From assembly GCA_965238005.1 (NCBI GenBank), contig OZ250165.1:3552001-3616000 (forward strand): a stretch of 64,000 nucleotides of DNA, written 5' to 3'. The stretch is from Longimicrobiales bacterium (lineage in GTDB: Bacteria; Gemmatimonadota; Gemmatimonadetes; Longimicrobiales; Gaopeijiaceae). A program made the position numbers and the translations under genes. A model generated the notes under the pieces. It was not told the DNA's origin. It did no database searches and worked only from the letters and a program-made list of their open reading frames with translations. Shown here piece after piece: positions 43,191 through 64,000 of the stretch (its first letter is position 1; each line of letters opens with the position of its first letter).

Positions 43191-43980
43191 CTACTGCCTC
43201 CTCGATGCGATGTATTGCGACTCTACGCTCCGCCGGCCTCTCCGCCCGGCTCATCCGGAACGCCGGGCTCTTCACGATTCCCAGAATGAACGACGACATG
43301 CGGTAGTCGTTCTCCTCGGCGTCCCTGACGATGGCCCGGACGGTCGGCTTGTCGTAGTACTCGATCCGACGGCCGAGGGCATAGGCCATGAGGTTCTCCG
43401 TGAACGTCCTGACCAGCGGGATGGGACGCCGAAGCAGGGCCTGCCGCAGGTCCCTGGGACTCGTCACGGGGGTGCCGTCGTACAGCTCACCTCGTGTGTC
43501 CAGCGGCATCCCGTTTTCTCTGATGCGCCACTTGCCGGTCACGTCGAAGTTGTCCAGGGCCAGACCGATGGGGTCCATGAACTTGTGGCAGGAGCTGCAC
43601 ACCGGATTCGAGCGGTGCATCTCCATCCGCTCCCTCGTGGTGAGCATCCGGCCGCCCTCGGACCCCTTGGTCTGCTCCAGATCGGGCACGCCGGGCGGGG
43701 GCGGGGGGGGCGGGGTGCCCAGGAGGACCTCCATGACCCATTTCCCCCTCAGCACCGGTGAAGTCCGGCCGGCGTGGGAGGTGAGAGTGAGAACGCTCCC
43801 GTGACCCAGCAAGCCCCTCCGCCGATCGTCGGCCAGCTCGACCCTGCGGAAGTGGGTCCCGGTGATGCCGGGAATGCCGTAGTGCCTGGCCAGGCGCTCG
43901 TTCACGTAGGTGTAGTCGGCGCTGAAGAGGTCGAAGATGCTCCGATCTTCTCGGACGAGGCTGTAGAAGAAGAGCTCCGT
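42943..43980. repeat. Near-identical 1.04-kb repeat, copy 2
   Basis: Matches 37044-38081. Confidence 0.9.
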
Positions 43981-45762
43981 TTCCCGGCGCATGGCCTCTT
44001 TGAGCTGCTGGTCGAAGCCGGGATACAGCCGGACGTCGGGGTGGATCTTCTCGAGGTCCTGGAGGCGGAGCCACTGGCCGGCGAACCGCGTGCCCAACGC
44101 CTCGGAGCGCGGATCGGCGAGCATGCGGCGGACCTGCTCTTCGAGACGTGCGGGATCCGAGAGATCACCCCGAGACGCCACGGCCATGAGCTCCTCGTCG
44201 GGCGGCGTGCCCCAGAGGAAAAACGACACACGTGAGGCGAGATCCTGGTCGTTGATCCAGTAGTCTTCGCCCGGCGCGACCCCAGGTGTGGGCTCCTCGA
44301 AGCGGAAGACGAAGTGGGGGCTGGCGAGGATCGCCTCCAGGCCCGTACGGATTCCGACCTCGAAGCCGCCCGCCGTCGCTCCCATCTCGTAGAACGACAT
44401 CAGGTCGCCCAGATTGTCCGCAGTGAGTGCCCTGCGGTACGCCTGGGTGCCGAGTCTGGTGACGATCTCTTCGGCGCAGCTCTTCTCTTCTCCCGGCGAC
44501 GTCGGACGGCACGTGAAGATCTTCCGCCGGCTCGGCGTCTCCGAGACACCCGTGGGGTTGTGCGGCCCGTTGATGGCCAGATCCCTCAGGTGCGGCAGAC
44601 TCGTGAATCCGTAGGCGTCGGCGATGCTGGTACTCGCCAGTGACCATTCGTGAGGAGAGACCAGGTCCTGGAGCGGCCCCTCCAAGCGTCTGATGAATGC
44701 CGCGGAGACCCTGTGGGGGCCCGCACGCACCGGAATGGGGCCCGTCCGCATGTTTACGCCGTCGGGGTCCGAACGGTGCATCCACCGGTCGATCTCCAGG
44801 AGCGCCACGCGCTCCCCGTCGATGGAGATCTCGAGCTGCTCCGGCACCTCGGCGGTGTGCAGCGCCGCTCTGCCGCTGCCATAGAGAGCGCCGGTGGTCT
44901 CATGGTGGAAGGAGACCCGGAACAGGTACTCGCCGTCCGCCGGGAAGTTGTGCACCACCGAGATTCCGCCGCGGGTCCCATGGGGGGCACTCTCCGCCCG
45001 CTCCGTCTGGGAGTTCCAGCGTGAGACCTTGAAGGTGGCCTCGCTGGCCGACGCGTCCGGATTGCCCACCGCCAGGCGGCTGATCTCGCTGGCCGCGGCC
45101 AGGTAGGCGTTCATGAGAGTGGGAGAGAGCAGCTGCACATCGGCGATGTTGTCGAAGTTCGCGCTCTTCGTGTCCAGCGGCAGGTAGGCTCCCGCCTCCA
45201 CGTCCAGCGTCAGCAGATCCCGGATCGACGCCGAGTACTCCGCACGGTTGAGCCGCTGGAACGTACGGTGGCCCGGATTCGGGGCTTCGGCAGCCGCCTC
45301 GTCGATGAGCGTCTCGAGGGTTTCGACCAGGGCGAGAAGGGTGTCGGGACTCGGACGGGGGGCGCCCGGAATGGGCATCATGCCCGCCCGGAGCTTCACG
45401 ATCATCTTCTCCGCCGTCTCGGCCATCTCGGGGGCCCGCGCCACATCGAATTCCGACAGCGTGAGGTTTCCCGTGAGCATCACGTCGTTGTGGCAAACGA
45501 CGCAGTACTGCTTGACGACGGCGGTGAGCGAGTCGGCGGGAATCGTGGGGGCTGAGCTGGCCGTCAGGACGGGTAGAGGGCCAGGGGCGGGGCCTCGCAA
45601 CGACGGACTCGCATAGGCCGCCAGGTACCCTTGGAGCGCCGCGTCGAGAGCGCCGTCCGAGGAGGAGCCGCCCGGCACGCCCTGCGACCACGCCGCGCAG
45701 GGGTGGGCTAGACCCACCAGCGCGATCAGGATCGGAAATGGCGGCGCTCGGAGTCTCCTCAT
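42997..45762 (-). CDS. DUF1587/1592/1588/1585-type heme-c protein (copy A); 3' end reads into DUF1552
   Basis: CVVCH, CSSCH, RLNRAEY, TSPVLRGKW. Start is ATG 45762 or GTG 45783. Confidence 0.9.
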   Translation of the reverse strand: MRRLRAPPFPILIALVGLAHPCAAWSQGVPGGSSSDGALDAALQGYLAAYASPSLRGPAPGPLPVLTASSAPTIPADSLTAVVKQYCVVCHNDVMLTGNLTLSEFDVARAPEMAETAEKMIVKLRAGMMPIPGAPRPSPDTLLALVETLETLIDEAAAEAPNPGHRTFQRLNRAEYSASIRDLLTLDVEAGAYLPLDTKSANFDNIADVQLLSPTLMNAYLAAASEISRLAVGNPDASASEATFKVSRWNSQTERAESAPHGTRGGISVVHNFPADGEYLFRVSFHHETTGALYGSGRAALHTAEVPEQLEISIDGERVALLEIDRWMHRSDPDGVNMRTGPIPVRAGPHRVSAAFIRRLEGPLQDLVSPHEWSLASTSIADAYGFTSLPHLRDLAINGPHNPTGVSETPSRRKIFTCRPTSPGEEKSCAEEIVTRLGTQAYRRALTADNLGDLMSFYEMGATAGGFEVGIRTGLEAILASPHFVFRFEEPTPGVAPGEDYWINDQDLASRVSFFLWGTPPDEELMAVASRGDLSDPARLEEQVRRMLADPRSEALGTRFAGQWLRLQDLEKIHPDVRLYPGFDQQLKEAMRRETELFFYSLVREDRSIFDLFSADYTYVNERLARHYGIPGITGTHFRRVELADDRRRGLLGHGSVLTLTSHAGRTSPVLRGKWVMEVLLGTPPPPPPPGVPDLEQTKGSEGGRMLTTRERMEMHRSNPVCSSCHKFMDPIGLALDNFDVTGKWRIRENGMPLDTRGELYDGTPVTSPRDLRQALLRRPIPLVRTFTENLMAYALGRRIEYYDKPTVRAIVRDAEENDYRMSSFILGIVKSPAFRMSRAERPAERRVAIHRIEEAVDGVHHRQAHIAARGPEGLGRDGGVALPRCHGPGREALGPGGRIRSDRRHTFGGHRNGAWCGGCE

Positions 45763-45842
45763 TCTCGGCCTCTCGAAAGGCACGGGAGTGTCCCGGTGTC
45801 CCCCGGGCCTTTAGGGCTGTTGTGACTACGCCTACGCGGGCT

Positions 45843-48874: not shown

Positions 48875-49894
48875 ATGAGGGCAACGTTCTTGTGTTGGCT
48901 CTGGCCGTAGCGGCGGCTTCCCCTCTCCCGGCTCAGCGCGCCTACGAGCCCCCGAACAAGGAGGCCCAGCGCCAGCGTCGGGCGAAGTTCCTGGAGGCCA
49001 TGGACGGCGGGATCGCCATTGTCGTGGCCGCCGAGAAGGACCAGGACTTCATCTACGAGTTCTTCGTGGACCACTCGGACCTCCACGACTTCATCTACCT
49101 GACGAGGCTGGAGGGGATCGACGCCTCGGAGTCGGTCCTGGTACTGGCCCCCGGCGCCGAGACGTACGCCGAGGTCCTCTACACCTCCCGGGAACCCGAG
49201 GAGATTCAGGAGAAGACGGGCATCGAGCACGTCTATCCCTACGAGCTCTTCATGGAGCACCTGTCCGACGCGATTACCGACTACTCCCTCCTCCGGACCC
49301 ACCAGCGGGGGGCAAGGGGCTCGCGACAGATCTGTCACGGTCCCTCGGCGAGGAGAAGAAGGTCCACTTCAATTACCAGCGTTTCCTGAAGCTGGCGGAG
49401 ACCCCCCGGAGCGCCTCGATATCACCAACCGGCTACATCGGGGCCGAGTACGCGCACTACACGGCGGACTTCGGGCGCTCCGTACCGGTGAGGGGCAAGT
49501 ACACTCCCGAGTAGCGGCGCATCGCCGAGATCCCCGCGTCCAGAAGCAGGTCATCGCCGCGGTGAAGCCCGGGAGGACGTTCGGCGAGAGCCAGGCACTC
49601 AAGGGCAGGCTCATGACGGAGGCTGGGCTGGGAGGCGTGACCGGGACATACGGCATCAGCCACTTCGTCGGGATGGAGATCCACGACGTGGGCTTCTACG
49701 ACATCCCCTGGGAGCCGGGCATGTGCTTCGTTATCGAGTGGCGGGTGAGCCAGGACGACTTCTCCATCCGCTTCCAGGACGTGATCCTCGTGACCGAGGA
49801 CGGCCACGAGTGGCTCACCAGGCACTCCCCCATCGAGCCCGACGAGATCGAGGCCCTCATGGCCAAGCGGGGGATCTGGGAGGGGGGGCGCTAG
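48875..49894 (+). pseudogene. Xaa-Pro aminopeptidase (M24B), fragmented
   Basis: N-domain pieces (DFIYLT), GAEYAHYTADFGR..PV.GKYT, SHFVGMEIHDVG..EPGMCFVIE..IRFQDVILVTEDG in different frames, with deletions. Confidence 0.85.
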
Positions 49895-50393
49895 CAAAGA
49901 ACGCGGGCGAAGCCGTTGCCACGCCCGGCCTTGCCATACGTTCGCCTACGGCGGGTACGAGGCGTACGACTGCGCCATGTTCGCGACCAGGAGCGCCACG
50001 GAGGCAAGGACGCCGACCGCCCAGAGCGAGAACCGGCCGAAGCGAGTCAGCCGCCCCCGACGCAACAACTCGAGCTGCTCGGAATGGGCCTTGCCAGACT
50101 GTCCAAGTTCCAGGGCGACTCGGCCGCGCGGACCGCATCGCCGTAGACGGTCCAGGAAGCGAATCTAGATCCGACCAGGGGTTGGCGCCGAGAGGCGTCC
50201 GGCCCCTCGTCGGTGGTGGGGGACCGTGCCGATTTGATGATGGTCCGATGATACGCGCCGATTACCCTCGGGAGCCCTGGAAGAGTTCCGTCGCTCACGC
50301 CCCGACCGAGGTCCGCACCGATCTCACGCGATCGCGAGACGTCAGGCGAGCTCAGGAGCGCTTCCACTCGACTACCAGTCACCAGGAGGTTCT

Positions 50394-50576
50394 ATGCAGA
50401 CCCTATCACGGGGCCGGATGCAGGAGCTGTGCGGCGCCAAGATCCCAGAGGGGAGCGCCTGCGGGTTCATGGTCGGATCCCTCGGAGGCGCCATCATGCT
50501 GGGGTGGGTCGTCCCTGCGGCGTTCATCTTCATGTTCACGCCGCTGGTATGCGTCCTGGATTACGGATGGCGCTGA
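50394..50576 (+). CDS. Putative bacteriocin/RiPP precursor 1 (double-glycine-type leader)
   Basis: AGGAGG RBS; leader MQTLSRGRMQELCGA; hydrophobic core with two Cys and GxxxG motifs. Confidence 0.7.
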   Translation: MQTLSRGRMQELCGAKIPEGSACGFMVGSLGGAIMLGWVVPAAFIFMFTPLVCVLDYGWR

Positions 50577-50623
50577 TCGCCCGTCGCCATTCGACCCACT
50601 CTTCCCCCAAGCAGGAGATCATC

Positions 50624-50800
50624 ATGACAGAGCTCGCGAGCCACCGGATGGCTGACATGAACGGTATGAGCTTCTGGCACGGCTTCCTTTGCGGCGCCGG
50701 CATCATCTCCTCGATCGCCATATCGGCTACCCCGGACCCCATTGTGAGGTGGAGCATCTACAGCGGCACGGTCGGTGCTTGCGGGCTGGCGTTCTTTTGA
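50624..50800 (+). CDS. Putative bacteriocin/RiPP precursor 2
   Basis: AGGAG RBS; leader MTELASHRMADMNGM; core SFWHGFLCGAGIISSIAISATPDPIVRWSIYSGTVGACGLAFF with two Cys. Confidence 0.7.
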   Translation: MTELASHRMADMNGMSFWHGFLCGAGIISSIAISATPDPIVRWSIYSGTVGACGLAFF

Positions 50801-50807
50801 GTTGGTG

Positions 50808-50836
50808 GGGCTGGGCGTGACCGGGGCGCCCAGCCC
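50808..50836 (+). terminator. Strong hairpin after the precursor genes (no U-tract)
   Basis: GGGCTGGGCG-TGACCGGGG-CGCCCAGCCC, a perfect 10-bp stem. Confidence 0.6.
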
Positions 50837-50862
50837 GTCGCTTCACTACATCGGTCGTTTCG

Positions 50863-52488
50863 ATGGGTGACCTCTCCGACGATCTCCTACTGGTCACACG
50901 ACACAAGCTCCAAATCGTCGGTCGCCGCTTCGCAGACAACGTACGCAACACCCTTGAAGGGAAGATGGCTCTGATCGTCATGTTGGCCGCCCCCTTCTTG
51001 ATGAAGAGCATGCTGGGGTCCGCGTCCCTGCGGGCCGCAAACGCCAGCCGCGGGGCGGCCGGCGTCATACTCGCGCTCGCCCACGCCGCGACCGTCGTTG
51101 CGCTGATTCTGGGCGTTGCCGCACGCACCGCTCGCTCACTGATCGTCGAGTATCAAGAGGAGCCGCTGGCTCTTTACCCGGGTGGGAGGCGTGGTCTCGC
51201 TGCCTATGACCTGTGGGGAGAAGTGGCGGCGACCGGCCTCTGGCTCCTCTTCTTCTTCTATCTCTTCTACGGCGCCTTGATTTATGGCCTGGCGACTCAT
51301 CCGCTCCTGGTCCTGCCCATGCATCTCCTTGCGCACTTTCTGGTGCTGGGCGCCCTCGGAGCACTGGCCTACCGCTTGACCCTTCGGATCCTGGAGAGAC
51401 GGCCGGCGATGGGCCGATCTCTCTACATCGGGACCAGTGCCGGCGCTGTGCTCGCGTTCCTCGCCGTAGTCGGGTCGGCGACACTTCTCGAAGATGTCCC
51501 GCCCGGGGTGATGGCCCAGCTGGGGGTGTGGTTCGACGGGGCCGCCGTTTTCTATCCTCCGCTCGCTGCGCTGGTCCAACCGACGAACAATCTCCTTGGC
51601 CCGCTGATGTGGGTAGCCGGCGTCGTGGCTGCTCCCGCTGTCGCGCTGAAGGCGGCCGGCCCACTGATGCGCGAGCCGAGTCCCCTGCTGCTGGGCGAGG
51701 TCGGAGCGCCGCCAGAGCGCCGCTTCACGAGCACCTTTCGGACACAGTGGCACCCCAAGGCCCGTGGTATGGCCGGCATTCGCCTGTTCTTCCTGAAGGA
51801 CATCCTTCTTCCCACGACCCGGAATCCCCGCCGCTTCCTCACCAGACAGTGGACCCTGCTCGCCCTTGCCGTGACGGGACCTGTCGTGATGTGGCAACTC
51901 CGCCGTGAGGGGCGCGTGAGCGAGATCGCGGCGGAGGCCGCCTTGTGGGGAGTGGTGATGGCGCTTCCATCGGTCGCCGCCTACTTGAGCGGGCTCGGCT
52001 CGCTCGGACGGGAGGGGCCGGAATTGGCGCTGATTCGTACATTCCTCCGGCCAGCCACGCTGTGGGGCTACAAGGTGCTTCCGGTCCTAGCTGCCGTGGT
52101 GCCGTACGGACTCGTCTACGGAGCCATCACGGGAGCCACCGCCGCTGGGCTGGCCCTCGAGCCGGGACCGTTGCAGTCAGCGGGCGTGGGTGGACTGACC
52201 GGAGTCGTCGCCGCCGTGAATGCGGTCGCTCTGGGGTTCCTGTCCCCCGACTTTGGACGCCGGAGCGTGCTCGCAACGGGTGCGTCAAGGACCGCACGGC
52301 GACTGTTCGAGATCATGGCCCTCTACGGCATTGGGGTCGGCGTCGTCACGCGTGTCATGACCCGCACGGAAGTGCTGCCCGCCGAGGTGTTCGCCGTGAC
52401 CCTGGTCACCACGGCGGGCTTGGGCGTGACGATGGGGGGGATCATCACCTTCTTGGCCCTTCGTCGACTCCCCTTCCTGGAGACTTGA
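50863..52488 (+). CDS. Multi-TM ABC transporter permease (putative immunity/export)
   Basis: About 12-14 hydrophobic helices in two halves; LGREGPELALIR motif; adjacent to an ABC ATPase. Confidence 0.75.
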   Translation: MGDLSDDLLLVTRHKLQIVGRRFADNVRNTLEGKMALIVMLAAPFLMKSMLGSASLRAANASRGAAGVILALAHAATVVALILGVAARTARSLIVEYQEEPLALYPGGRRGLAAYDLWGEVAATGLWLLFFFYLFYGALIYGLATHPLLVLPMHLLAHFLVLGALGALAYRLTLRILERRPAMGRSLYIGTSAGAVLAFLAVVGSATLLEDVPPGVMAQLGVWFDGAAVFYPPLAALVQPTNNLLGPLMWVAGVVAAPAVALKAAGPLMREPSPLLLGEVGAPPERRFTSTFRTQWHPKARGMAGIRLFFLKDILLPTTRNPRRFLTRQWTLLALAVTGPVVMWQLRREGRVSEIAAEAALWGVVMALPSVAAYLSGLGSLGREGPELALIRTFLRPATLWGYKVLPVLAAVVPYGLVYGAITGATAAGLALEPGPLQSAGVGGLTGVVAAVNAVALGFLSPDFGRRSVLATGASRTARRLFEIMALYGIGVGVVTRVMTRTEVLPAEVFAVTLVTTAGLGVTMGGIITFLALRRLPFLET

Positions 52489-52489
52489 G

Positions 52490-53257
52490 ATGACGGACGC
52501 ACCGTCCATAAGAATCGACCGGCTCACCAAGAGTTTCGGCCCGGTGCTGGCCGTCTCCCAGTTGAGCATGACCGTCGATGCGGGTGAGATCGTCTGCTTC
52601 CTGGGCCCAAACGGCGCAGGCAAGACGACGACCATCGCCACTATCATAGGTCTCAAGAGACCCACAGCCGGTGACGTGTTCATCAACGGCGTGAGCCTGC
52701 GTGCGCCGAACGTCGAATCAGTCCGTAGAAGTATCGGCTATCTGCCGGAGCAACCGGTGTTGTACGACTATCTCACGGGTCGGGAGTTCGTCCAGTTCTT
52801 CGGCCAGCTTTACCGAGCGGACAGGGCATTGGACAGCTGGCTGGACGATCGGCTGGCCGCCCTACAGATGAGTGAGCACGCGGATCGGCTGATCAAGGGC
52901 TACTCGGCGGGAATGAGGAAGAAGATCTCCTTCCTCACGGCCCTGGTACATCAGCCCGACATCCTGATCTTCGATGAGCCCACCGGCGCGCTGGACGCTC
53001 TCAGCGCCCGCATCGTCAAAGATGAAATGGTCGCCGCCCGGGAGAGAGGCTCGCTGGTCTTCTTCACGACTCATGTCATGGAGATCGGGGAGCGCCTCGC
53101 GGACCGAATCGTCATTATCAGTAACGGACAACTCGTAGCAAACGGGACACTCACCGAGCTGCGGATGGCACACGGCCGAGAGACCGGCGAATCACTCGAG
53201 AGTCTCTTCCTCCGCCTGATTCAACTGACGGGGTCCCGAGCAGGCCACAGCGAATGA
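52490..53257 (+). CDS. ABC transporter ATP-binding protein (ABC-2 type)
   Basis: GPNGAGKTT, YSAGMRKK, LIFDEPT, TTH. Confidence 0.95.
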   Translation: MTDAPSIRIDRLTKSFGPVLAVSQLSMTVDAGEIVCFLGPNGAGKTTTIATIIGLKRPTAGDVFINGVSLRAPNVESVRRSIGYLPEQPVLYDYLTGREFVQFFGQLYRADRALDSWLDDRLAALQMSEHADRLIKGYSAGMRKKISFLTALVHQPDILIFDEPTGALDALSARIVKDEMVAARERGSLVFFTTHVMEIGERLADRIVIISNGQLVANGTLTELRMAHGRETGESLESLFLRLIQLTGSRAGHSE

Positions 53258-55405
53258 TGCCATCGGCGCTTTCTCGCCTGGCACGACGGTGCGCCCGCAC
53301 CGTGAACCCCCACCCGGTCGTCCGTCAGTACGATCGGGTTGATTGCGGCCCCGCCTGCCTCCTTTCAGTGCTACGGTTCCACGGCGGCGATACCGGGCTC
53401 CCCCGGGTGCGATCCTTGAGTGGCACCGACGCGAGCGGGACCAGCCTCCTTGGGCTCCATCGCGCCGCCGTCGCCCTCGGATTCGAAGCCCGCGGCGCCA
53501 CCGGCGACTACGACAGCCTGCGCAAGGAACGACTGCCGTGTATCGCCCACGTCGTTGTCGAGGGAGCTCAGCACTACGTCGTCGTCTATGATGCCCGAGA
53601 CCGACGGCTGAAGGTGGGCGACCCGGCTCTCGGACCTCGGTGGCTCACGCGTGAGGATTTCGAAGGTATTTGGAGTCAACGAGCCGTCTTGCTCCTACAC
53701 CCCGGCCGGGATCTCCTCCGAGAGCACCCACCTCACTGGTTCCGATGGGTTCTCGGCCGCATCCGCCACGTTCACGGGTGGCTGGTGCAGTCTGTGTTCC
53801 TCGGCGTGATCTACACGATTCTGGGTCTCGCTACAGCGGTCGTGGTTCAGCGGCTGATCGATGACTTCATCGAGATGCGTGACGTGTCGCGGATTCTGTG
53901 GGCCGGTGGGTTTCTTTTTGCCCTCCATGCATTGAGGGGATTGGCCGGATACCTCCGTCAGCGGTTCTTGGTCGGACTCTCCAAGAGAGCCTCGAACGCC
54001 ATCGCATCGGAGTTCCTGGAACACCTGTTCAAGCTTCCCGCTCGTTACTTTGACACGCGAAAGCGTGGAGACATCATCGCACGTCTGCAGGATGCCTCGC
54101 ATATTCAAACCGCGGTCTTGGAGATTCTGGGTAGCACGACCATCGACGTACTCATCACGGTGCTGTCGATGGCTGCCGTCTTCTACTTCTCGCCACCGCT
54201 GGGTTGGATCGCACTGATCCTCCTGGTACCCTACGCCCTCCTCACAGGCACCGCGGCACGACGGATTCATCGGAAGCATCATGCCGCCCTGCGCCTATGG
54301 GCGGCTTCACGCTTCCTACGTCGACGCCATCGAGGGCATCGACTCGATCCGTGGGCTCGGCGTCGGACCGGCCTTCACTCGGCTGAACCTGGCGCTCTTC
54401 GGCCACTTCCAAACCCGGGTCGAGCGGCTCGGACTCACACGTGCCGCGATCGGATTCCGGGTCGAGGGTGTGAGCAGCGCCCTGCTGGCCACGATCCTGA
54501 CCGTCGGCGCCCTTCTAGTGGTGACAGGAGATCTGCGCCTCGGGGCGATGATGGCCGCCTACTCACTCGTTACCGGCACCTTGCCGAGCCTGCAGCGAGT
54601 CATGGAGGGCCTCTTCGCGTTTCAAAGCGGCGGGGCGGCGGCCCAAAGGCTGCAGGACCTCATGCTCACCGCCCCGGAAGAGAGTAGCGGGGAGCGTCCG
54701 TTCCGGATGGGAGTCGACTAGAGGTTGGACGACGCCCGCTTCGAATGGCCCAACGGAGAGCCGGTTCTGAACGGAGCCAGCCTGACACTCCGGCGCGGAC
54801 GGATCACTGGATTGAGCGGAGCGAACGGATCCGGCAAGACCACGCTCGTTCATCTCCTCACGCGGCGCTATCCGCTGAATGGGGGACGTTTGAGAATCGA
54901 CGGCGTAGTGGCGTCGAGGATCGACCTTCAGGCGTATCGTCGGCAGGTAGCCGTCGTTCCAGAGGCCGTGAAGATCTTTCACGGCACTCTTGGTGACAAC
55001 ATCGCACTCGCACGGGAGGAGCTGTCTCGGGAAGAGCTTACTGACCGCCTTCGTGACCTCGCGGTGGGCTCGTTCATCAGTCGGTTCAGGGGGGGACTTG
55101 CCACCATCCTCGGCGAGGACGGGCGTCGCTTGTCTGCCGGTGAGCAGCAGATGATCGGTCTGATACGCGTGCTGCTATGCCGGCCCTCGGTTCTCATCAT
55201 CGACGAGGGCCTGAACGCCCTGGACCCCCGGCTCTACCGGACAGCCATCAGGGCCCTCGCAGCGCACGCCTCCCGAGGAGCGGTTCTTCTCATCTCTCAT
55301 CACCCGTCCGTGTTGGCCCTCGCCGATGAGCAACTCCGCCTCGAAGGGGGCGTCATCACCTCAGTCATGGGGCACGAACCCGGTCCCGACGCCAAGGCGG
55401 CCTGA
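53254..55405 (+). pseudogene. C39 peptidase-containing ABC transporter (PCAT) with frameshift and nonsense codon
   Basis: QYDRVDCGPACL, HYVVV, GDP (C39); TM domain; GANGSGKT, LSAGEQQ, IIDEG. Frameshift near 54290-54300 and in-frame TAG at 54719-54721. Confidence 0.9.
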
Positions 55406-55482
55406 GTCCGGTGGCCCGATCGTGGGGAGGTGGCTCCGTGCCTATCGACTCCCCCGTCGCGAGCGACCCAGAGTCCCGCGGA

Positions 55483-56112
55483 ATGGCCACTTGGCGCATC
55501 TTCATTCTGATCGCCTGCGTCTGGCTGGCCGTTTCTGCATACACGAATGAGAGGGTGCTCGCGCCGGAGGTGATGGCAGGCGTGGCCAGCCGTACCCCCG
55601 GGGTCGAGATGTCGGTCACGCAGCTCGACCAGCTACGCCGACAAGGACGCTGGGCATACCTGCTGCTTCCCGCGCTCCTGGCGATCCGCGTCGCCGTCGT
55701 GGCCCTGGCACTTCAGTTGTTCTCGATGTTGATGGCGCATCCCCTACCCTACCGCGAGGCATTCCGCGCGGGCCTCTTGGGCTTCGGGGCCGTGATCTAC
55801 GGCACATTCGTTCGGATGCTGAGGCTCGATCTGCTCCCGTCTGGCACCCTCACACGGGAGGAGCTCGCAGTCGTTCCCGATTCGCTGGCGGTCGTGATCT
55901 TGGGAGCGGGAGAGCGTGTCACGGTCCTGTCCGCCGCCTTGGGCCTGGTTAGCCTCCATGACGCCTTCTGGATCGTGGTCGTCTCGGCGTACCTCCATGC
56001 CTTCACCGGCCTGGAGCGCCGTGTGGCCATCGCCATCGCCGTGTCCGGATGGCTGACAGTGGCGCTGGCCCGCCTCGGCGCCCAGGCCTTCATGATCGGA
56101 ATGCTCAACTGA
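55483..56112 (+). CDS. Membrane protein (about 5 TM, Yip1-like topology) at the end of the peptide locus
   Basis: MATWRIFILIAC..RWAYLLLPALLAIRVAVVALAL..PDSL..SLHDAFW. Confidence 0.7.
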   Translation: MATWRIFILIACVWLAVSAYTNERVLAPEVMAGVASRTPGVEMSVTQLDQLRRQGRWAYLLLPALLAIRVAVVALALQLFSMLMAHPLPYREAFRAGLLGFGAVIYGTFVRMLRLDLLPSGTLTREELAVVPDSLAVVILGAGERVTVLSAALGLVSLHDAFWIVVVSAYLHAFTGLERRVAIAIAVSGWLTVALARLGAQAFMIGMLN

Positions 56113-56248
56113 GCGGTGTCGACACCCGTCGCGCCGCCGAGTTGCCGGCCCCCGTAGCCGCGGTCTCCTTGCCCTCACCGCAACCCGCCTCTACCGTGCC
56201 CATCCACCCACGAGGGCCCTCTCACACTCATTGTCAGAGAAACGTGCC

Positions 56249-56704
56249 ATGAGCATCCGAAAAGTCACAGCCTTCGCTCTCCTCACTCTGATCTCCGCCG
56301 CCGCCACCACCGACCTGTCTGCGCAGGATACCCACACCTACTTCGGCGGGAGCTCCCCGGCCGACGACGGACCACCCTTCAGCGGCGCCGTTCAGGTGGG
56401 CAACACGCTCTATCTCTCCGGAGCCATCGGGCTCGACCCGGGCCAGCAGGTACCGGCCACCGCCGAGGCAGAGGCCACGAACGTCCTGAACAACATCCAG
56501 AGATCCCTGGAAGCCGCCGGCATGACCATGAACGACCTGGTTATGGTGCAGGTGTACAGCTCCGACGTCTCCGACTACGGTGCCTTCAACGGCGTCTACC
56601 GCACCTACTTCACCACCGAGTTTCCGGCCCGGGCCTTCATCGGTGCCGGCACGCTGCTCTTCGGCGCTCGGTTCGAGGTGCTGGGGATCGCCGTAAAGCG
56701 GTAG
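56249..56704 (+). CDS. RidA/YjgF family protein with signal peptide
   Basis: PFSGAVQVGNTLYLSG, FNGVYRTYF..FPAR, ARFEV. Confidence 0.9.
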   Translation: MSIRKVTAFALLTLISAAATTDLSAQDTHTYFGGSSPADDGPPFSGAVQVGNTLYLSGAIGLDPGQQVPATAEAEATNVLNNIQRSLEAAGMTMNDLVMVQVYSSDVSDYGAFNGVYRTYFTTEFPARAFIGAGTLLFGARFEVLGIAVKR

Positions 56705-56842
56705 TGGGGCCGACACCTGACGCTCGACATCCCGTGACGCCGAATACACATTAGTTGGCGCAGGGGAGCGGCGTTGGGCCCGTCGGGGCTCACCAAATGG
56801 TCCGGCACATCTCGCACCAGGCCCCTCGCTAGGGGGCACTGG

Positions 56843-58486
56843 ATGCCGAATCTAGAGACAAGGTCGAGCACTCGAATGGGCTCCTGGAGTGGCCCGAGGG
56901 AAGGTCTCCTCACCACTCCCGCGGAACTGGTCCGGGGGCTGGCTCGCGTGAATCTGCCTCTATATGTCGTCGATCACGGCGACACCTTCGCGTTCTCCCA
57001 CGAGGGCACCGTCGAGCTCGGTGGCGATCCCCAGGTGGAAGGCCTCCCTCTCCTGGCCCTGGCCCCCGCATGCAAGCCCCAGCGCCTGGGATCCGCTGGA
57101 TTCGCCCATGACCACGGCGTCCGTTTCTGCTATCTGGCAGGCGCCATGGCGAACGGCATCGGCTCGGTGGAGCTCGTAGAGGCCATGAGCCGAGCGGGCA
57201 TGCTCTCCTTCTTCGGCGCCGCCGGCCTCGGGCCGGATCCTATCGAAGACGCCATTGACCACGTTTCCACCCGCTTGGGCGATCTCCCCTGGGGATTCAA
57301 CCTCATCCACAGCCCGTACGAGCCCAGGCTCGAAGAGGCGGTGGCCGACCTCTACGTGCGCCGCGGCGTGAACCGGGTATCCGCCTCGGCCTATATGGAT
57401 CTCACGCTGCCCCTGGTGCGCTACCGGCTCCACGGGATCCATGCGGACTCGTCGGGCCGCGTGGTGACGCCCCATCGGGTGTTGGCCAAGGTCTCGCGCA
57501 CCGAGGTGGCCCGGAAGTTCTTCGCCCCTGCTCCGGCCAAGATGCTGGCCGAGCTGGCAGCCCGCGGAGACCTCACCGAGGAGCAAGCCCGCATGGCCGA
57601 GACCGTCCCGGTTGCGCAGGACCTGACGGTGGAGGCCGACTCGGGCGGCCACACCGACAACCGGCCCGCCATCACCCTGCTCCCCACCATGCTGGCCCTT
57701 CGAGATCGGCTCCAGGTGGAGCACGACTACGACGCCCCCTTGCGTGTGGGTTCCGCTGGCGGCGTTTCGACGCCACATTCAGTGGCTGCGACGTTCGCCA
57801 TGGGGGCCGATTACGTCCTGACCGGCTCGGTGAACCAGGCGTGTCGCGAGGCCGGAACGTCGGACGCCGTCCGGAAGATGCTGGCCCAGGCGGAGCAGGC
57901 CGACGTGACCATGGCTCCGGCCGCAGACATGTTCGAGATGGGCGTCAGGTTGCAGGTCCTCAAGCGCGGAACGATGTTTCCCATGAGGGCTCACCGCCTG
58001 TATGATCTCTATAGAGCCCACGCGGGCCTCGAAGACATTTCCGAAGACGAACGGCTGAATCTGGAACGGACGATTTTCCGTACGTCGTTGGACGAGATCT
58101 GGGACGAGACGCGACGCTTCTGGGAGGCCCGAGACCCGGCCCAGGTCGAAAAGGCCGAGCGCGATCCGAAGCATCGGATGGCGCTGGTCTTTCGGTGGTA
58201 CATGGGCATGTCGTCCCGCTGGGCGAACCGCGGTGAGCCGGGTCGTGAGATGGACTACCAGGTCTGGTGCGGCCCGGCGATGGGTGCTTTCAACGAGTGG
58301 GTCCGGGGCAGCGTCTTGGAGCCCTGGGAGAGCCGTCGCGTAGTCAGCGTGGCTCACAACATGTTGCATGGTGCTGCGGTCATTACGCGGGCGAACGCTC
58401 TGCGCAGCCAGGGAGTGGAGCTGCCGGCCGAGTGCGTCGACGTCCGCCCCCGCGAACCAGATGAACTCGAGGAACTGCTGTCTTGA
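56843..58486 (+). CDS. pfaD: PfaD-family enoyl reductase of a PUFA synthase/PKS
   Basis: YLAGAMANGI, SASAYM, AKVSRTEVA, EADSGGHTDNRP, MAPAADMFEMG, DYQVWCGPAMGAFN. Confidence 0.95.
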   Translation: MPNLETRSSTRMGSWSGPREGLLTTPAELVRGLARVNLPLYVVDHGDTFAFSHEGTVELGGDPQVEGLPLLALAPACKPQRLGSAGFAHDHGVRFCYLAGAMANGIGSVELVEAMSRAGMLSFFGAAGLGPDPIEDAIDHVSTRLGDLPWGFNLIHSPYEPRLEEAVADLYVRRGVNRVSASAYMDLTLPLVRYRLHGIHADSSGRVVTPHRVLAKVSRTEVARKFFAPAPAKMLAELAARGDLTEEQARMAETVPVAQDLTVEADSGGHTDNRPAITLLPTMLALRDRLQVEHDYDAPLRVGSAGGVSTPHSVAATFAMGADYVLTGSVNQACREAGTSDAVRKMLAQAEQADVTMAPAADMFEMGVRLQVLKRGTMFPMRAHRLYDLYRAHAGLEDISEDERLNLERTIFRTSLDEIWDETRRFWEARDPAQVEKAERDPKHRMALVFRWYMGMSSRWANRGEPGREMDYQVWCGPAMGAFNEWVRGSVLEPWESRRVVSVAHNMLHGAAVITRANALRSQGVELPAECVDVRPREPDELEELLS

Positions 58487-61400
58487 GCGATCGAAATAAA
58501 GATCGGGCCGCCGCCCAGTCACCCATAGCCATCGTCGGCATCGCCTGCGTGTTCCCGAAGGCTGGCGGTTTGCACGACTATTGGGCAAACGTGCGTGACG
58601 GCGTCGACGCCATCACCGAGATCCCTGAATCAGCCTGGAAGACATCGGAGTACTACGACGCCGATCCCAAGGCGCCCGACATGACCTACGGACGCCGCGG
58701 CGGCTTCATCGATCCCATCGACTTCGAGCCGATGGCCTTCGGCATCTCACCTCGGGACTTGGAAGCCACCGACACCACGCAGCTGCTGGGCCTTCATGTG
58801 GCCCGTCAGGCGCTTCAGGACGCCGGGTACGGTCCAGACGGCCGGGAGTTCGATCGGGAGAAGACCAGCGTCATCCTCGGGGTGAGCGGAACGTTGCCCC
58901 TGGTCATCCCCTTGGGCGCGCGCCTCGGGCACCCCATCTGGCGGAAGGCGCTGAAGGACGCCGGAGTTGATCCCGAGACCACGGAAGACGTCATCGAGCG
59001 TATCGGCGAAGGCTACGTCCCGTGGCAGGAGAGCTCTTTCCCCGGGCTCCTGGCCAACGTTGTCGCCGGCCGCATCGCCAATCGCCTCGACCTTCACGGC
59101 ACCAACTGCATCGTGGACGCGGCGTGTGCTTCGTCCCTGAGCGCAGTGCATCTCGCGGCCCTCGAGCTCGAGTCGGGACGGGCCGACATGGTCCTGAGCG
59201 GCGGGCTGGACACGTTCAACGACATCTTCATGTACATGTGCTTCTCCAAGACGCCGGCGCTGTCGGCGACGGGGAACGCACGCCCGTTCGACGACCAGGC
59301 GGACGGCACCATGCTGGGTGAGGGCGTAGGGGTTCTGGTGCTCAAGCGGCTCGGGGATGCCGAGCGGGACGGCGACCGCATCTACGCCGTGATCAAGGGC
59401 ATCGGCTCGTCCTCCGACGGAAAGGGGCAGGCCGTCTACGCCCCCGCCCCCGAAGGCCAAGCCCGGGCGCTCAGGGCCGCCTACGAGAACGCGGGCATCC
59501 TCCCCGACACCGTCGAGCTGGCAGAGGCTCACGGAACGGGCACCCGGGTGGGCGACGCCACCGAGGTTAAGGGCCTCACCACCGTCTATCGGGAGGCGAG
59601 CCCGGAGGGAACGTGGTGCGCTCTGGGTTCGGTGAAGTCCATGATCGGCCACACCAAGGCAGCAGCGGGCGCGGCAGGCCTAATCAAGACGGCCATGGCG
59701 CTCCACCACAAGACGCTCCCCCCGACCATCAAGGTGGAGAGCCCGAACGAGGCGGTGGCCCCCGGCGAGACTCCATTCTATGTGAACACCGAGAAGCGGC
59801 CCTGGCTGCCCAAGAGTGGACATCCGCGCCGCGCCGGTGTGAGCGCCTTCGGGTTCGGGGGCAGCAACTTCCACTGCGTGGTGGAGGAGTACGGGTCGAA
59901 GGCCACCGAAGTCGACTGGGATGGACGCGATCAGCTGATCGCCTTCTCCGCCGACGACCGGGAGGCCCTTGCCGCACAGCTGGAGCAGTTCCAGGCCGAG
60001 GGGGACTGGGCCGACATCCGGGGACGGGTGGCGGAGAGTCGCGCCCGCTTCGACGCATCCAAAGAGGTCCGGCTGCTTCTGGTCGCCGAGCGAGACGGCA
60101 CGCCGGTCTGCGACCTCATCGGGATGGCGCTTTCGCAGCTGAAGGACGAGCGATCGTCCTGGGCGATGCCCCAGGGGATCTATTTCGGATCCGGAGCCGC
60201 CAAGGGCAAGTGGGCGGCTTGCTTCCCGGGCCAGGGAGCCCAGTACGTCGGGATGCTCCGGGAGCTGGCGTGCCGCTTCCCTGCCGCGGCGGACACCTTG
60301 GCCGCCGCCGATGAGGTGACGCCGGGCCTGGCCGACCGGATCTATCCGCATCCGGCGTTCGACTACGCCACCCGCTCGCAACAGGAGGACGAGCTCCGCG
60401 CCACCAACACGGCCCAGCCGGCCATCGGCGCCGTAGGCCTGGGCGCCCTCCGGGTGCTCAAGCAGTTCGGCCTCTCCCCCGACGCCACCTGCGGCCACAG
60501 CTACGGCGAGCTCGTAGCGTTGTGCGCGGCGGGTCGGCTCCGGCCCATGGAGCTGTACCAGCTCTCACGCCGCCGAGGTGAGCTCATGGCGACCGGCGAC
60601 GGAGATCACGGTTCGATGCTGGCCGTGGCCGCCGAGCTGGAGTGGGTGAAGCAGTTCTTGCGCACCCACGATCTCGATCTGGTCGTCGCGAACCACAACG
60701 CCCCCGAACAGGCCGTGCTCTCCGGCGTCACGTACGAGATCGAGCGTGCCCAGGATCTCCTGTCACGAGAAGGCGTGCGAGTGAAGCGCCTCGCGGTGGC
60801 CGCCGCCTTCCACAGCAGCCTGGTGGCCCAGGCGGGAGCGCCCTTCGCTGAGAGCCTTACGAGCATCGAGCTCACGGGGAGCGACGTGACCGTGTACGCC
60901 AACGCCACCGGCGCCGCGTATCCCGAGCGCTCGACGGACGCCCGCGAACTGTTGGCCAGCCAGCTCACCTCACCGGTGGAGTTCGTGGCCTGTGTGAGGT
61001 CCATGTTCGAGGATGGAGTGCGGACCTTCGTGGAGGTGGGCCCCGGGCGTCGGCTCTCGGCCCTCATCGATGAGATCCTGGCCGGCGAGGACATTACCAC
61101 CGTGGCCCTCGACGCGTCCTCGGGCCGGAGAGCCGGGCTAGTCGACCTGGCCCGCACGCTGGCCCAGTTGGCCGCCGACGGCCACGCCGTGGCGTTGGAC
61201 CGTTGGGACGACGGGGCCCTCGATGCATGGAGGCGCAGGATCGCCCGCGGTAAGCCGACCATGACCGTTCCCATTTCCGGTGTGAACTACGTGGAGCCAC
61301 GACCGAAGCGGCCGCCCAAGGCCGCCACCCCTGCCCCAGCAGCGACGACCCCGGCAGCATCGACCTCGACGACCCCGGCAGCGTCGACTCCAGCGGTGAG

Positions 61401-64000
61401 CCTGCCCCACATGACCCGCACCGGCCCGGCGGCCGATGCGCCGACAGTGACGTCGGATCCGCAGCTATTGGCCGAGGCCATGCGGGCGAGCCAGGCGAGC
61501 CTCCAGGCTCTGGTGCGGCTGCAGGAACAGACGGCGGACGTGCACCGCAGTTTCCTCGAGTCCCAGGAGCGGACCATCCAGGCCATCGCCTGGCAGCAGG
61601 GATTGCTGCCCCCGGGGCAGATCGTCGAGGCGCTGGCTGTCGAGCCGACCGCGGCGCCGGCCCCCACACCCGGTGTGGCGGCCGCCCTGCTCTCGGTCGT
61701 GTCGGAGAAGACCGGGTATCCGGAGGAGATGCTCGAGCTGTCCATGGGCCTGGACGCGGACCTGGGCATCGACTCCATCAAGCGGGTAGAGATCCTGGCC
61801 GCTCTGCAAGAGCGGCTCCCGAACGCGCCGGTGGTGACACCGGAGCACCTGGGCGAGATCCAGACGCTCGCTCAGATCGTCGAGTTTCTGGGCGGTTCCG
61901 CCTCCGAGCCAGCCGCGCCCCCGCCGGTGCCCGACGGAGACGCAGCCGGGGAAGTCACCGCTGCCACCGGATCCGTTCCTACGGCCGAGTCGGCCACCTC
62001 CCCCATGGCATCGGCGCCTCAGGAACAGGCCGTCCACACGCCCACCAACGGCGCCGTCGATGCGCCGACCAACGGAAGCGTCGATGCCTCACGGATCTCT
62101 GAGGTCCTGCTGAGCGTCGTGGCGGACAAGACGGGATACCCCGTCGACATGCTCGACGTGTCCATGAACCTGGACGCGGACCTGGGGATCGACTCCATCA
62201 AGCGGGTCGAGATCCTGGCCGCTTTGCAGGAGGCGCTCCCCGAGGCCTCGGTGGTGGCTCCCGATCAGCTCGGCGAGCTCCGCACCCTGAGCCAGATCGT
62301 GGAGGTGCTCTCAAACGATACCGAGCCTGCGCCTGCCCCGGCGCCGGCTGTCCCGGACCAGTCCGCTCCCCCCGCCTCGGCGGGTGTCGAGCGCCTGGTC
62401 CCGACCCTGCACCCCATCGGTTCGACCGGAGAGCCCATCGGGCTCCCCGCCGGATCCAAAATCTGGGTGACCAAGAGCGGTGACGTCCTCTCGGGCCAGA
62501 TCGTCGAGGAGCTAAGCGCCCAGGGCTATTCTGCCGAAGAGGTGGAGCTGGCCGACGAGGTTCACAACCCGCCCGATGAACTGGCGGGCTTGATCGTGGT
62601 GGTGCCTCCCCGGGTCACCGACGAAGACATCCTAGTCGGATTCGGGCGTGTGCGGGCCATGGCCCCGGTCCTCCGTCGCGCGGCGCTGCAAGGCGGAGCC
62701 CTCCTGTGCAGCGTGACGTGTCTGGGTGGCGGCTTCGCCCTCGACGCGCCTCCCCCCGAGGATGTGGATCCGACGGGCGGAGCCTGGGGCGGAATGACCA
62801 AGACGGCCGCCGCCGAGTGGACGGACGTCCACTGCAGGAGCATCGACGTCGATCCGAACCGGATCGACCTCGCGTCAGAAGTGGTGAAGTACGCTCTCTC
62901 GGAGGGGCCGGTGGAGATCGGCCTGGGGAACGAAGGGCCCCAGACGGTGGTTCTCGAAGCACATCCAGTCGAGCCTGCGGCGCATGCGGCCCTGGGATCC
63001 GACGATGTCGTGCTGATCACCGGTGGAGCCCGTGGTGTAACGGCCGAAGTGGCCGTCGCTATGGCCGAAGCGGGACAGCCGCGCCTCATCCTCATGGGCC
63101 GCAGCCCCGAGCCGAGGGGTGAGCCCGACTGGCTCGTCGGCCTCGACGGGGAGGCGGAGATCAAGCGAGCCATCGTGGCCCAGGCGGGCCCAGGCCTCAG
63201 CCCCCAGGCGGCCCAGGCCGAGTTCAACCGCATCCAGGCCAGCCGGGAGATCCTGCGTAACCTTGCCCGCATCTCGGCGGCCGGATCGGAGGTCGTCTAC
63301 TGCTCCGTCGATGTCCGGGAGCCCGACGCCGTGCGAGCGTGTCTCGATCCACTGGTCGAGGAGTTCGGCCCGGTCACAGGACTCGTTCATGGAGCCGGTG
63401 TGCTGGCCGACCGCAACATCGAGGACAAGAGTGACGGGGACTTTGCCTTCGTCTACGACACCAAGGTGGGCGGGCTACGATCCGTGCTTGCCGCCCTGGG
63501 GGACGCGCCCCTGAAGACCATGGTGATGTTCTCCTCGTCGACGGCCCGCTTCGGGCGCCGTGGACAGGTGGACTACGCCGCAGCCAACGAGGTGCTCAAC
63601 AAGGTGGCGCAGGGCGAGGCCGCCCGCAGGGAAGGGTGCCGCGTGGTCTCGGTGAACTGGGGTCCCTGGGATGGCGGCATGGTGACGCCGGCACTGAAGA
63701 GCATGCTCTCGGCCGAGGGTATCGAGGTCATCGGGATGGAGAGCGGCGCGGCCTACGTCCTGGACGAGATCGCCTCCGATGGACCGACGGAGGTGCTCAT
63801 CCTCGGACCCGGTTCGCAGGTCCCCACTGCGGGACAGGGCCCGCCGGACGCGACGAACGGTGCCGGACCGGATGAGCTACCCGTGGTTTTCGAGCGGATC
63901 ATCACCACCGATACACACGAGTTCATGGCGTCCCACGTCCTGGACGGCCGGGCCGTGCTGCCCGCCACGATGACGCTGGAATGGCTCGCCCATGGCGCGC
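58483..64000 (+). CDS. pfaA: PfaA-like iterative type I PKS (KS-AT-ACP-ACP-KR-DH); runs off the right edge
   Basis: Not in the ORF track. TTG 58483 gives MSDRNKDRAAAQSPIAIVGIACVFP; DAACASS, EAHGTGT, IGHTKAAAG (KS); GHSYG, AAFHS (AT); two DLGIDSIKRVEIL (ACP); ITGGARGV, YAAANE (KR); SHVLDGRAVLP (DH). Confidence 0.93.
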   Translation, partial: MSDRNKDRAAAQSPIAIVGIACVFPKAGGLHDYWANVRDGVDAITEIPESAWKTSEYYDADPKAPDMTYGRRGGFIDPIDFEPMAFGISPRDLEATDTTQLLGLHVARQALQDAGYGPDGREFDREKTSVILGVSGTLPLVIPLGARLGHPIWRKALKDAGVDPETTEDVIERIGEGYVPWQESSFPGLLANVVAGRIANRLDLHGTNCIVDAACASSLSAVHLAALELESGRADMVLSGGLDTFNDIFMYMCFSKTPALSATGNARPFDDQADGTMLGEGVGVLVLKRLGDAERDGDRIYAVIKGIGSSSDGKGQAVYAPAPEGQARALRAAYENAGILPDTVELAEAHGTGTRVGDATEVKGLTTVYREASPEGTWCALGSVKSMIGHTKAAAGAAGLIKTAMALHHKTLPPTIKVESPNEAVAPGETPFYVNTEKRPWLPKSGHPRRAGVSAFGFGGSNFHCVVEEYGSKATEVDWDGRDQLIAFSADDREALAAQLEQFQAEGDWADIRGRVAESRARFDASKEVRLLLVAERDGTPVCDLIGMALSQLKDERSSWAMPQGIYFGSGAAKGKWAACFPGQGAQYVGMLRELACRFPAAADTLAAADEVTPGLADRIYPHPAFDYATRSQQEDELRATNTAQPAIGAVGLGALRVLKQFGLSPDATCGHSYGELVALCAAGRLRPMELYQLSRRRGELMATGDGDHGSMLAVAAELEWVKQFLRTHDLDLVVANHNAPEQAVLSGVTYEIERAQDLLSREGVRVKRLAVAAAFHSSLVAQAGAPFAESLTSIELTGSDVTVYANATGAAYPERSTDARELLASQLTSPVEFVACVRSMFEDGVRTFVEVGPGRRLSALIDEILAGEDITTVALDASSGRRAGLVDLARTLAQLAADGHAVALDRWDDGALDAWRRRIARGKPTMTVPISGVNYVEPRPKRPPKAATPAPAATTPAASTSTTPAASTPAVSLPHMTRTGPAADAPTVTSDPQLLAEAMRASQASLQALVRLQEQTADVHRSFLESQERTIQAIAWQQGLLPPGQIVEALAVEPTAAPAPTPGVAAALLSVVSEKTGYPEEMLELSMGLDADLGIDSIKRVEILAALQERLPNAPVVTPEHLGEIQTLAQIVEFLGGSASEPAAPPPVPDGDAAGEVTAATGSVPTAESATSPMASAPQEQAVHTPTNGAVDAPTNGSVDASRISEVLLSVVADKTGYPVDMLDVSMNLDADLGIDSIKRVEILAALQEALPEASVVAPDQLGELRTLSQIVEVLSNDTEPAPAPAPAVPDQSAPPASAGVERLVPTLHPIGSTGEPIGLPAGSKIWVTKSGDVLSGQIVEELSAQGYSAEEVELADEVHNPPDELAGLIVVVPPRVTDEDILVGFGRVRAMAPVLRRAALQGGALLCSVTCLGGGFALDAPPPEDVDPTGGAWGGMTKTAAAEWTDVHCRSIDVDPNRIDLASEVVKYALSEGPVEIGLGNEGPQTVVLEAHPVEPAAHAALGSDDVVLITGGARGVTAEVAVAMAEAGQPRLILMGRSPEPRGEPDWLVGLDGEAEIKRAIVAQAGPGLSPQAAQAEFNRIQASREILRNLARISAAGSEVVYCSVDVREPDAVRACLDPLVEEFGPVTGLVHGAGVLADRNIEDKSDGDFAFVYDTKVGGLRSVLAALGDAPLKTMVMFSSSTARFGRRGQVDYAAANEVLNKVAQGEAARREGCRVVSVNWGPWDGGMVTPALKSMLSAEGIEVIGMESGAAYVLDEIASDGPTEVLILGPGSQVPTAGQGPPDATNGAGPDELPVVFERIITTDTHEFMASHVLDGRAVLPATMTLEWLAHGA

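Follow-up and report, generated by a model that had tools for sequence, protein, structure and literature searches.

What do two adjacent genes for small, two-cysteine peptides do beside a cleaving exporter in Gemmatimonadota, a phylum that abounds in soil and whose peptide chemistry is almost uncharacterised? The question is raised by a window of 64,000 nucleotides from a Longimicrobiales bacterium of this phylum (assembly GCA_965238005.1, contig OZ250165.1, positions 3,552,001 to 3,616,000), whose genome, labelled G000 here, is a single contig of 4.84 Mb. At positions 50394-56112 of the plus strand, a first-pass annotation made from the letters alone had marked an unannotated pair of bacteriocin-like precursor genes, here called pepA and pepB, with export and putative immunity genes of their own. 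We find that the locus belongs to a six-gene cassette conserved in soil Longimicrobiales, and we consider it likely that its two-cysteine peptides, which would be cut by a C39 peptidase and exported, act as an antibacterial pair resembling class II bacteriocins or microcins. The peptides are well supported as genes and as cargo of the peptidase-containing ATP-binding cassette (ABC) transporter, or PCAT; the function proposed for them is read from sequence. The window strain itself is probably a non-exporter that keeps its putative immunity genes.

Two peptide types in a recurring cassette

The set formed by an A-type and a B-type peptide gene, a permease, an ATPase, a PCAT and a last membrane protein is present in the window genome, in G001, G002, L033, G252 and G177, and in part on the contig L039, giving 7 Longimicrobiales loci in three genomic contexts that differ in their flanking genes. 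At least one A-type and at least one B-type gene are adjacent on the same strand in 7/7 loci, 47-83 nt apart where measured, and Shine-Dalgarno sites stand ahead of both open reading frames (ORFs) in all loci examined. The closest relatives, G001 and G002, are of the same genus and, at ~96% DNA identity over the locus, keep both peptide ORFs and their ribosome-binding sites. L033 is a more distant metagenome-assembled genome in which the permease is 61% identical and all six genes are intact; its flanks are those of the window (M1 peptidase, M24 aminopeptidase, RidA and PfaD). The six-gene set stands in different contexts in G252, from another genus of the same family, and in G177, from the same class. 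L039, a 9.2-kb metagenome contig that ends within the PCAT gene and in whose A-type gene two bases are masked, was the one contig recovered in a scan of metagenome contigs with permease alignment A9; the same kind of scan with permease alignment A6 gave 591 pattern matches, 0 of them confirmed. The small ORFs had been expected to accompany homologous PCATs, and a PCAT gene is indeed found in 7/7 loci.

The peptide genes are ordered A-B in the window clade and G177, and B-A in G252 and L039. G177 has, upstream of its A/B pair, a third and degenerate A-type gene (L028, 11903-12061, minus strand) of 52 aa with a displaced second Cys, and the region upstream of this extra gene is duplicated as well.

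Both ORFs, of 60 and 58 aa, had been credited with strong ribosome-binding sites; we verified their coordinates and Shine-Dalgarno sites, which lie 4-6 nt from the ATG in both genes, and found the pair conserved in 6 further loci. The 15-aa leaders align as first described. Double-glycine leaders follow the consensus LSxxELxxIxGG, hydrophobic at -4, -7 and -12, and the corresponding residues are L-12, M-7 and L-4 in pepA and L-12, M-7 and M-4 in pepB. In the distant copies of G252 and G177 the leaders are canonical and end in GG (MKTLSRSEMEGLPGG, from G252, and MREMSTHEMRNVAGG, MHTLSSDQMTDIEGG and MQVLTLEQAQQLEGG). Each core carries two Cys 30 residues apart, as had been noted, at residues 23 and 53 of either precursor (core positions 8 and 38), and the pepA leader holds a third. 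The 30-residue spacing is kept in the A-types of G252 and G177, and the B-types of those genomes have a spacing of 32. The GxxxG motifs likewise proved conserved in both types: the pepA core contains CGxxxGxxxG, present in the A-types of the window clade, G252 and G177, and the pepB core contains GxxxG (G20-G24) with a PDP turn in its middle. In the AlphaFold model of pepB (predicted local distance difference test score, pLDDT, 70.7), a short leader helix is followed by a helix at 15-33, a loop at ATPDP and a helix at 39-57, a layout that a disulfide-stapled hairpin would fit.

The B-types form a family of some size. A profile built on 8 sequences retrieved 50 cluster representatives at E<=1e-3, 17 of them at E<=1e-10, among 1.84 billion proteins, and 41 of the 50 were aligned with 5 locus sequences. 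In this alignment of 46, for which counts are partly circular since the rows were recruited by a profile made from such sequences, the leader has 15 aa in 44/46, Gly stands at -2 and L/M/I/F at -12 in every sequence (46/46), position -4 is I/L/M/V in 40/46 and position -7 is M/L in 42/46. The predicted core has exactly two Cys in 46/46, at least 90% of the sequences keep G20 and G24, and no columns are more conserved than those of the leader Gly and the two Cys. The nine representatives left out (P0008, P0024, P0027, P0029, P0030, P0032, P0044, P0045 and P0048) had long N-terminal extensions, or C-termini that were truncated or out of frame; P0032 and P0048 resemble frameshifted B-type genes. 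In P0027, P0030 and P0044, 30-45 residues resembling a Sec signal peptide precede the double-glycine leader, and these extensions may be mis-called starts or a variant using another export route. Word-based protein searches with the single peptides returned close relatives only, 3 clusters for pepA and 4 for pepB. In a sample of the phylum (400 genomes and G000, 401 in all), the permease was matched in 3/401, including G000, and the B-type profile in 4/401, including G000 and one weak match in G335.

Against L033, the most distant relative in the same context, both peptide genes have ratios of nonsynonymous to synonymous substitution (dN/dS) of 0.24-0.34 at a dS of ~1; within the genus, where counts are small, the ratio is 0.43-0.93 for the peptide genes and 0.22 for the ATPase. 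The values against L033, with the conservation of both ORFs and their Shine-Dalgarno sites in 6 further loci, set the pattern apart from a chance one.

The peptides had been called an unannotated new family, and no curated family covers them. Neither the window peptides nor the permease and the last membrane protein match Pfam or NCBIfam, the latter two not even at E<=10, and the window peptides match neither Bacteriocin_IIc (PF10439) nor MccV (PF17508). The second peptide of G252 reaches 18.2 bits against the Pfam bacteriocin model, below the cut-off of 27.1, and PF10439 is matched at E<=0.01 by only 2/46 B-types. A few B-types match the models of BlpC (weakly, 4/46), lichenicidin A2 or lactococcin G-beta through the leader, and such weak leader-driven matches go exclusively to double-glycine families (Bacteriocin_IIc, MccV, BlpC and lactococcin G-beta). 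A language-model search, which we treat as a lead, placed pepB nearest to class II bacteriocin clusters (0.90-0.91, with 150-163 shared features). Weak matches to pepB residues 10-39 at G000:C1:2297687 and in G001 and G002 were considered as a second pepB-like locus and rejected, the ORF encoding an unrelated small membrane protein of 96 aa.

Table 1. Features of the cassette in the window genome, in window coordinates
Feature	Position	Strand	Detail
Shine-Dalgarno AGGAGG of pepA	50384..50389	+	sequence read; same in G001 and G002
pepA, A-type precursor, 60 aa	50394..50576	+	leader 15 aa ending GA; core 45 aa
Shine-Dalgarno AGGAG of pepB	50613..50617	+	sequence read
pepB, B-type precursor, 58 aa	50624..50800	+	leader 15 aa ending GM; core 43 aa
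GC-rich stem-loop without T-run, between peptide genes and transporter genes	50804..50842	+	
Permease, 541 aa, two six-helix halves, no Pfam/NCBIfam model	50863..52488	+	predicted fold ABC-2/type V
ABC ATPase, DrrA/ABC-2 group, permease partner	52490..53257	+	Pfam ABC_tran
PCAT pseudogene: C39 peptidase, six-helix ABC membrane domain, ATPase domain	53254..55405	+	
Multi-pass membrane protein, ~5 transmembrane helices, no curated family	55411..56112	+	

The stem-loop that follows pepB (Table 1) folds at -34.6 kcal/mol (z -3.2), with equally good folds in 0/200 shuffles, and its sequence recurs nearly identically behind pepB in L033 (7917-7945) and in G001 and G002. The GC stem of 11-12 bp (GGGCTGGGCG...CGCCCAGCCC) is kept although the L033 permease is only 61% identical, and the conservation of the stem exceeds that of the surrounding coding sequence. 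It might act as an attenuator or as a stabiliser of the mRNA. Scanning 49800-56400 for promoters and terminators gave nothing above the shuffle background and no promoter-like site 5' of pepA; the A-type and B-type genes presumably share a transcript.

Proposed cleavage, export and activity of the peptides

In the mechanism that we favour, the peptidase domain of the PCAT would cut each precursor after Gly(-2)-X(-1) and the ABC part would carry the cores of 43-45 residues across the inner membrane. Outside the cytoplasm the two Cys would oxidise and close a helix-turn-helix hairpin, and the two hairpins would act in membranes, probably together. The ABC-2-type permease and its ATPase, with the last membrane protein, would protect the producer, and the stem-loop behind pepB would tune the expression of peptides versus transporters.

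Several parts of this scheme have counterparts in the data. Pfam recognises Peptidase_C39, ABC_membrane and ABC_tran domains in 53254-55405, and the intact PCAT of G001 matches the solved transporter PCAT1 (4ry2) over its full length at E 2e-82; the QYDxxDCG, HYVVVY and GDP motifs of the two are in register. The best NCBIfam matches of the same protein are bacteriocin exporters, all below the curated cut-offs. The ATPase best matches drrA in NCBIfam (195.7 bits, below the cut-off of 312), and also matches the models of lantibiotic protection (galliderm_ABC) and of PmtA. The family of the permease comprises 32 clusters in a set of 5.8 billion proteins, none of them named and none with a Pfam domain. 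The last membrane protein was placed nearest to Yip1-domain clusters (0.93) by the language-model search, again as a lead. Its GTG start at 55411 may be too far 5', the true start being an internal ATG ~24 codons in: G002 lacks 55411-55482, homology in G252 begins near the internal Met and the L033 match in G002 runs from residue 22. Modifying enzymes had been reported absent, and none is common to the three genomic contexts, in which only the six cassette genes are conserved. A CxxC-containing ORF upstream of the G177 peptides was considered as a disulfide enzyme and rejected, having no Pfam match and being absent from the other loci.

Other observations weigh against the favoured mechanism and temper our confidence in it. 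C39 peptidases obey a GG/GA/GS rule at the cleavage site, with Gly at -2 and Gly, Ala or Ser at -1. Of the two double-glycine-type sites first proposed, the GA of pepA (GS in 5 close relatives) fits this rule; the GM of pepB falls outside it, and in L033 Met precedes the predicted cut in both peptides. Ahead of the predicted cut, 26 of the 46 B-types have G, 8 have E and 5 have R, M and A occur twice each and I, Q and S once each, so that 29/46 have G/A/S and 17/46 have E/R/M/I/Q, outside the rule. Class IIb peptides are cationic and have one small cognate immunity gene alongside, and the net charge of both window cores is 0. Profile comparison relates the A cores weakly to B (probability 11%); the B profile matches the G177 A-type peptide at E 1.9e-4, and common descent of the two cores is only suggested. 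As for the permease, its model (pLDDT 80.8) has two six-helix halves, and the match of residues 293-541, in the C-terminal half, to ABC-2/type V membrane domains (NosY, Z 15.0; ABCG2, 14.9; CcmB, 14.0; PmtCD, 12.9; root-mean-square deviation 3.4-3.9 over 216-222 residues for NosY and ABCG2) counts in favour of the scheme, with scores of 13-15 only modestly above background for helical bundles. A Foldseek search of this model against the PDB gave nothing at E<=1e-3, and the permease does not match Pfam ABC2_membrane. None of the 7 loci has a membrane-fusion or outer-membrane gene, and the 9 HlyD_3 matches of the window genome all lie ~600 kb or more from the locus, so the cassette offers no evident route across the outer membrane of this diderm host. 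Finally, at least one transporter gene is broken in 5/6 complete loci, and the cassette may be decaying or dispensable.

A bolder version of the proposal can be entertained, tentatively. The cassette would be a mobile module encoding a hitherto undescribed two-peptide toxin of paralogous, uncharged, helical one-disulfide hairpins, with a C39 peptidase tolerant of Glu, Arg and Met ahead of the cut and a PCAT without a membrane-fusion partner; wild populations would mix exporters with immune non-exporters because transporter genes are repeatedly knocked out.

The alternative that fares best makes each peptide a one-peptide bacteriocin or microcin in its own right, the two having no more in common than an operon and an exporter and forming no obligate two-component toxin. 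Operons of several bacteriocins with a single exporter are common, G177 has three peptide genes including the degenerate A-type, the A/B order varies among lineages, and in G002 the pepB start codon is lost and pepA is intact. Such a loose association sits poorly, however, with the side-by-side placement of A-type and B-type genes in 7/7 loci and with the retention of GxxxG-type motifs and of the two-Cys layout in both types, and we regard it as rather unlikely.

We give less credence still to a role outside toxicity, with the peptides serving as signals or as surfactant-like or envelope components that the ABC-2 pump and the membrane protein would handle or sense. PCATs export pheromones too, for example ComC and BlpC, and the cores are uncharged and very hydrophobic; where a membrane-fusion partner is missing, the peptides would stay in the envelope of the producer, and the ABC-2 fold also matches the peptide exporter PmtCD. 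The weak BlpC-model matches of 4/46 B-types point the same way, but they are driven by the leader. No histidine kinase or response regulator was seen beside any locus, and two-Cys cores of 43-45 aa that contain glycine-zipper motifs are far closer to pore-forming bacteriocins than to short pheromones. An antibacterial pair remains our preferred explanation, and doubt about a non-toxin role is considerable.

Broken transporter genes and the surrounding DNA

The locus had been read as having its own export. This does not hold for the window genome, where the PCAT gene is a pseudogene. The ATPase and the C39 transporter named by the first-pass annotation are confirmed by Pfam, and the permease and last protein have no model; what had been overlooked is the break-up of the C39 transporter gene into three ORFs (53254-54687, 54281-54721 and 54725-55405), caused by a 2-bp deletion at 54290 and an in-frame TAG (TTG>TAG) at 54719-54721, both relative to G001 and G002. 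The disruption lies downstream of the peptidase domain. Since this gene, with its frameshift and stop, gives the only C39 match found in the genome, the strain is probably non-exporting.

Both lesions are reproduced in the contigs of the public run X1, which holds 94% of the sampled words of the locus and may be the source sample, so that it serves as a check of the assembly and not as independent support; three other runs, X2, X4 and X8, have neither. Of the 24 runs listed, none that holds the locus is an RNA run. The intact GG at 54290 is found in 7.1 of 22.1 depth in X1, 4.55/4.55 in X2, 13.3/13.3 in X4 and 13.8/13.8 in X8, and the intact T at 54720 in 0 of 20.2, 6.5/6.5, 13.3/13.3 and 20.6/20.6, respectively. 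In X1, then, GG is missing at ~15 of 22 depth and kept in a minor variant, and all assembled depth reads TAG, which suggests that the stop may have arisen first and the deletion later. The coding blocks 21731-31756 and 37339-45773 (~18 kb) have no isolated frame-breaking indels relative to G001, and the PCAT lesions are therefore not general assembly noise. That the window exporter works after all, its lesions being assembly errors or its three pieces forming a split transporter, is highly improbable. In favour of it, the first ORF keeps the C39 domain and the four leading helices whole, the ATPase piece is preceded by a TTG close to a GGGAG, and X1, as a possible assembly source, is not independent. 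Against it, both lesions recur in X1, one is a substitution and the other a 2-bp loss in a 3-base run, neither a typical homopolymer error, the ~18 kb of neighbouring coding sequence is clean, and no ABC half-transporter that is divided within the membrane domain is known to us.

A survey with the intact L033 proteins as queries extended the picture to the other loci. L033 has no lesions. G001 has a 1-bp loss in the permease and G177 a frameshift in the same gene; G252 has a PCAT frameshift and an in-frame TAA ahead of the H-loop. G002 has a 70-bp deletion in the permease, a 2-bp deletion near the end of the PCAT, a pepB altered by ATG>ATA and Gly(-2)>Ser, and a deletion at the start of the last gene, with pepA intact. 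The PCAT is thus broken in G000, G002 and G252. Short G/C runs hold the G252 frameshift and the one-base lesions of G001 and G177, all of which could be sequencing or assembly errors; the remaining lesions are substitutions or multi-base deletions.

At the junction between the PCAT and the last gene (window position 55407), G001 (L018) alone has a 164-bp insertion, which may be a small mobile repeat, and G002 has a deletion of ~50-60 bp instead. Just upstream of the cassette, at 48892-49894, a gene for an Xaa-Pro aminopeptidase is broken in two, with AMP_N at 48892-49389 and the M24 C-terminal part at 49562-49894, and shows several small indels relative to G001; the L033 orthologue is intact at 473 aa. 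Selection appears to be relaxed over all of ~48.9-56 kb. Directly 3' of the cassette, 56774-64000 encodes a PfaD-like enoyl reductase and then a multidomain synthase of >1839 aa (KS-AT-ACP-KR) that extends past the window end, a cluster of the polyunsaturated-fatty-acid or polyketide synthase type. Further upstream, the minus strand at 34047-45783 holds two tandem copies, ~81-85% identical in DNA, of a three-gene unit whose products are an ankyrin-repeat protein, a DUF1552 (HXXSHH) protein and a large PSD/DUF1592-1588-1585 protein.

Relation to known bacteriocin systems

The novelty of the cassette is that of a new sequence family and not of a new principle; systems of this kind are well known, and a leader peptide with a cleaving exporter holds no surprise in kind. 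It contributes ~50 sequence clusters of one defined peptide family, along with the exporter and the genes that are candidates for immunity. For expression, L033 provides a clean and intact set of genes, the variable residue ahead of the cut is a probe of C39 specificity, and a PCAT without a membrane-fusion partner is an oddity in a double-membrane cell. Judged by titles and the beginnings of abstracts, none of the papers found on longimicrobial bacteria and bacteriocins appears to treat such a family. A 2025 survey found class II microcins to be widespread, and Gemmatimonadota are absent from its main text (PMC12219008). The 'bacteriocins' of a survey of marine Gemmatimonadota, in the parts that concern us, are limited to Nif11-type (TIGR03798) annotations and generic microcin ones (PMC11316326).

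The class IIb two-peptide bacteriocins of Gram-positive bacteria, such as lactococcin G and plantaricin EF/JK (review PMC2850506), are similar in having two different small peptides encoded adjacently, 15-residue leaders of double-glycine type, GxxxG motifs in both peptides and a dedicated PCAT with no modifying enzymes. The cassette differs in its diderm Gemmatimonadota producer, in its uncharged cores with two conserved Cys each, and in having no small dedicated immunity gene, in place of which stand an ABC-2 pump (the 541-aa permease and its ATPase) and a membrane protein of ~210-230 aa; nor are its peptides members, by sequence, of any of the curated class II families.

The class II microcins of Gram-negative bacteria, exemplified by MccV with CvaAB-TolC (PMC12219008, PMC9746304), share with the cassette the Gram-negative producer, small unmodified peptides with a possible disulfide and predicted export by a PCAT, and the 15-aa leader of MccV quoted in PMC12219008, MRTLTLNELDSVSGG, is very similar to that of G252, MKTLSRSEMEGLPGG. 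In class II microcins as described there, the PCAT is paired with an adjacent membrane-fusion gene of CvaA type and export proceeds via TolC (PMC12219008), unlike in the cassette, which has no such gene beside the PCAT in 7/7 loci. Compared with MccV, its peptides are also far shorter and of greater hydrophobicity; they fall into two paralogue-like types, and the residue ahead of the cut varies.

For single components, the best solved relative of the cassette PCAT is PCAT1 of Clostridium thermocellum with its substrate CtA (4ry2, 6v9z, 7t54); the Cys, His and Asp motifs of the peptidase align, whereas identity is low, the cargo is different and the window copy is a pseudogene. The putative protection genes recall LanFEG-type lantibiotic protection and the phenol-soluble-modulin exporter PmtABCD: the ATPase is DrrA-like with galliderm_ABC and PmtA matches, and the predicted fold of the permease matches ABC-2/type V domains including that of PmtCD. 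Unlike in those systems, the permease is one chain of 541 aa, built of two six-helix halves, for which Pfam and NCBIfam have no model, and its immunity role is putative.

For the pattern of decay, the closest parallel is the pneumococcal blp locus, in which frameshifted blpA has been discussed in terms of 'producers and cheaters' (PMC3171984). As there, the PCAT gene is recurrently inactivated and the peptide genes persist with the immunity genes, which are putative here; the lineage and the peptides are other, and in some genomes the permease is broken too. By analogy, the window strain may retain immunity and behave as a cheater, and the recurrent breakage of transporter genes could represent, in soil, an equivalent of the pneumococcal blp polymorphism of producers and cheaters.

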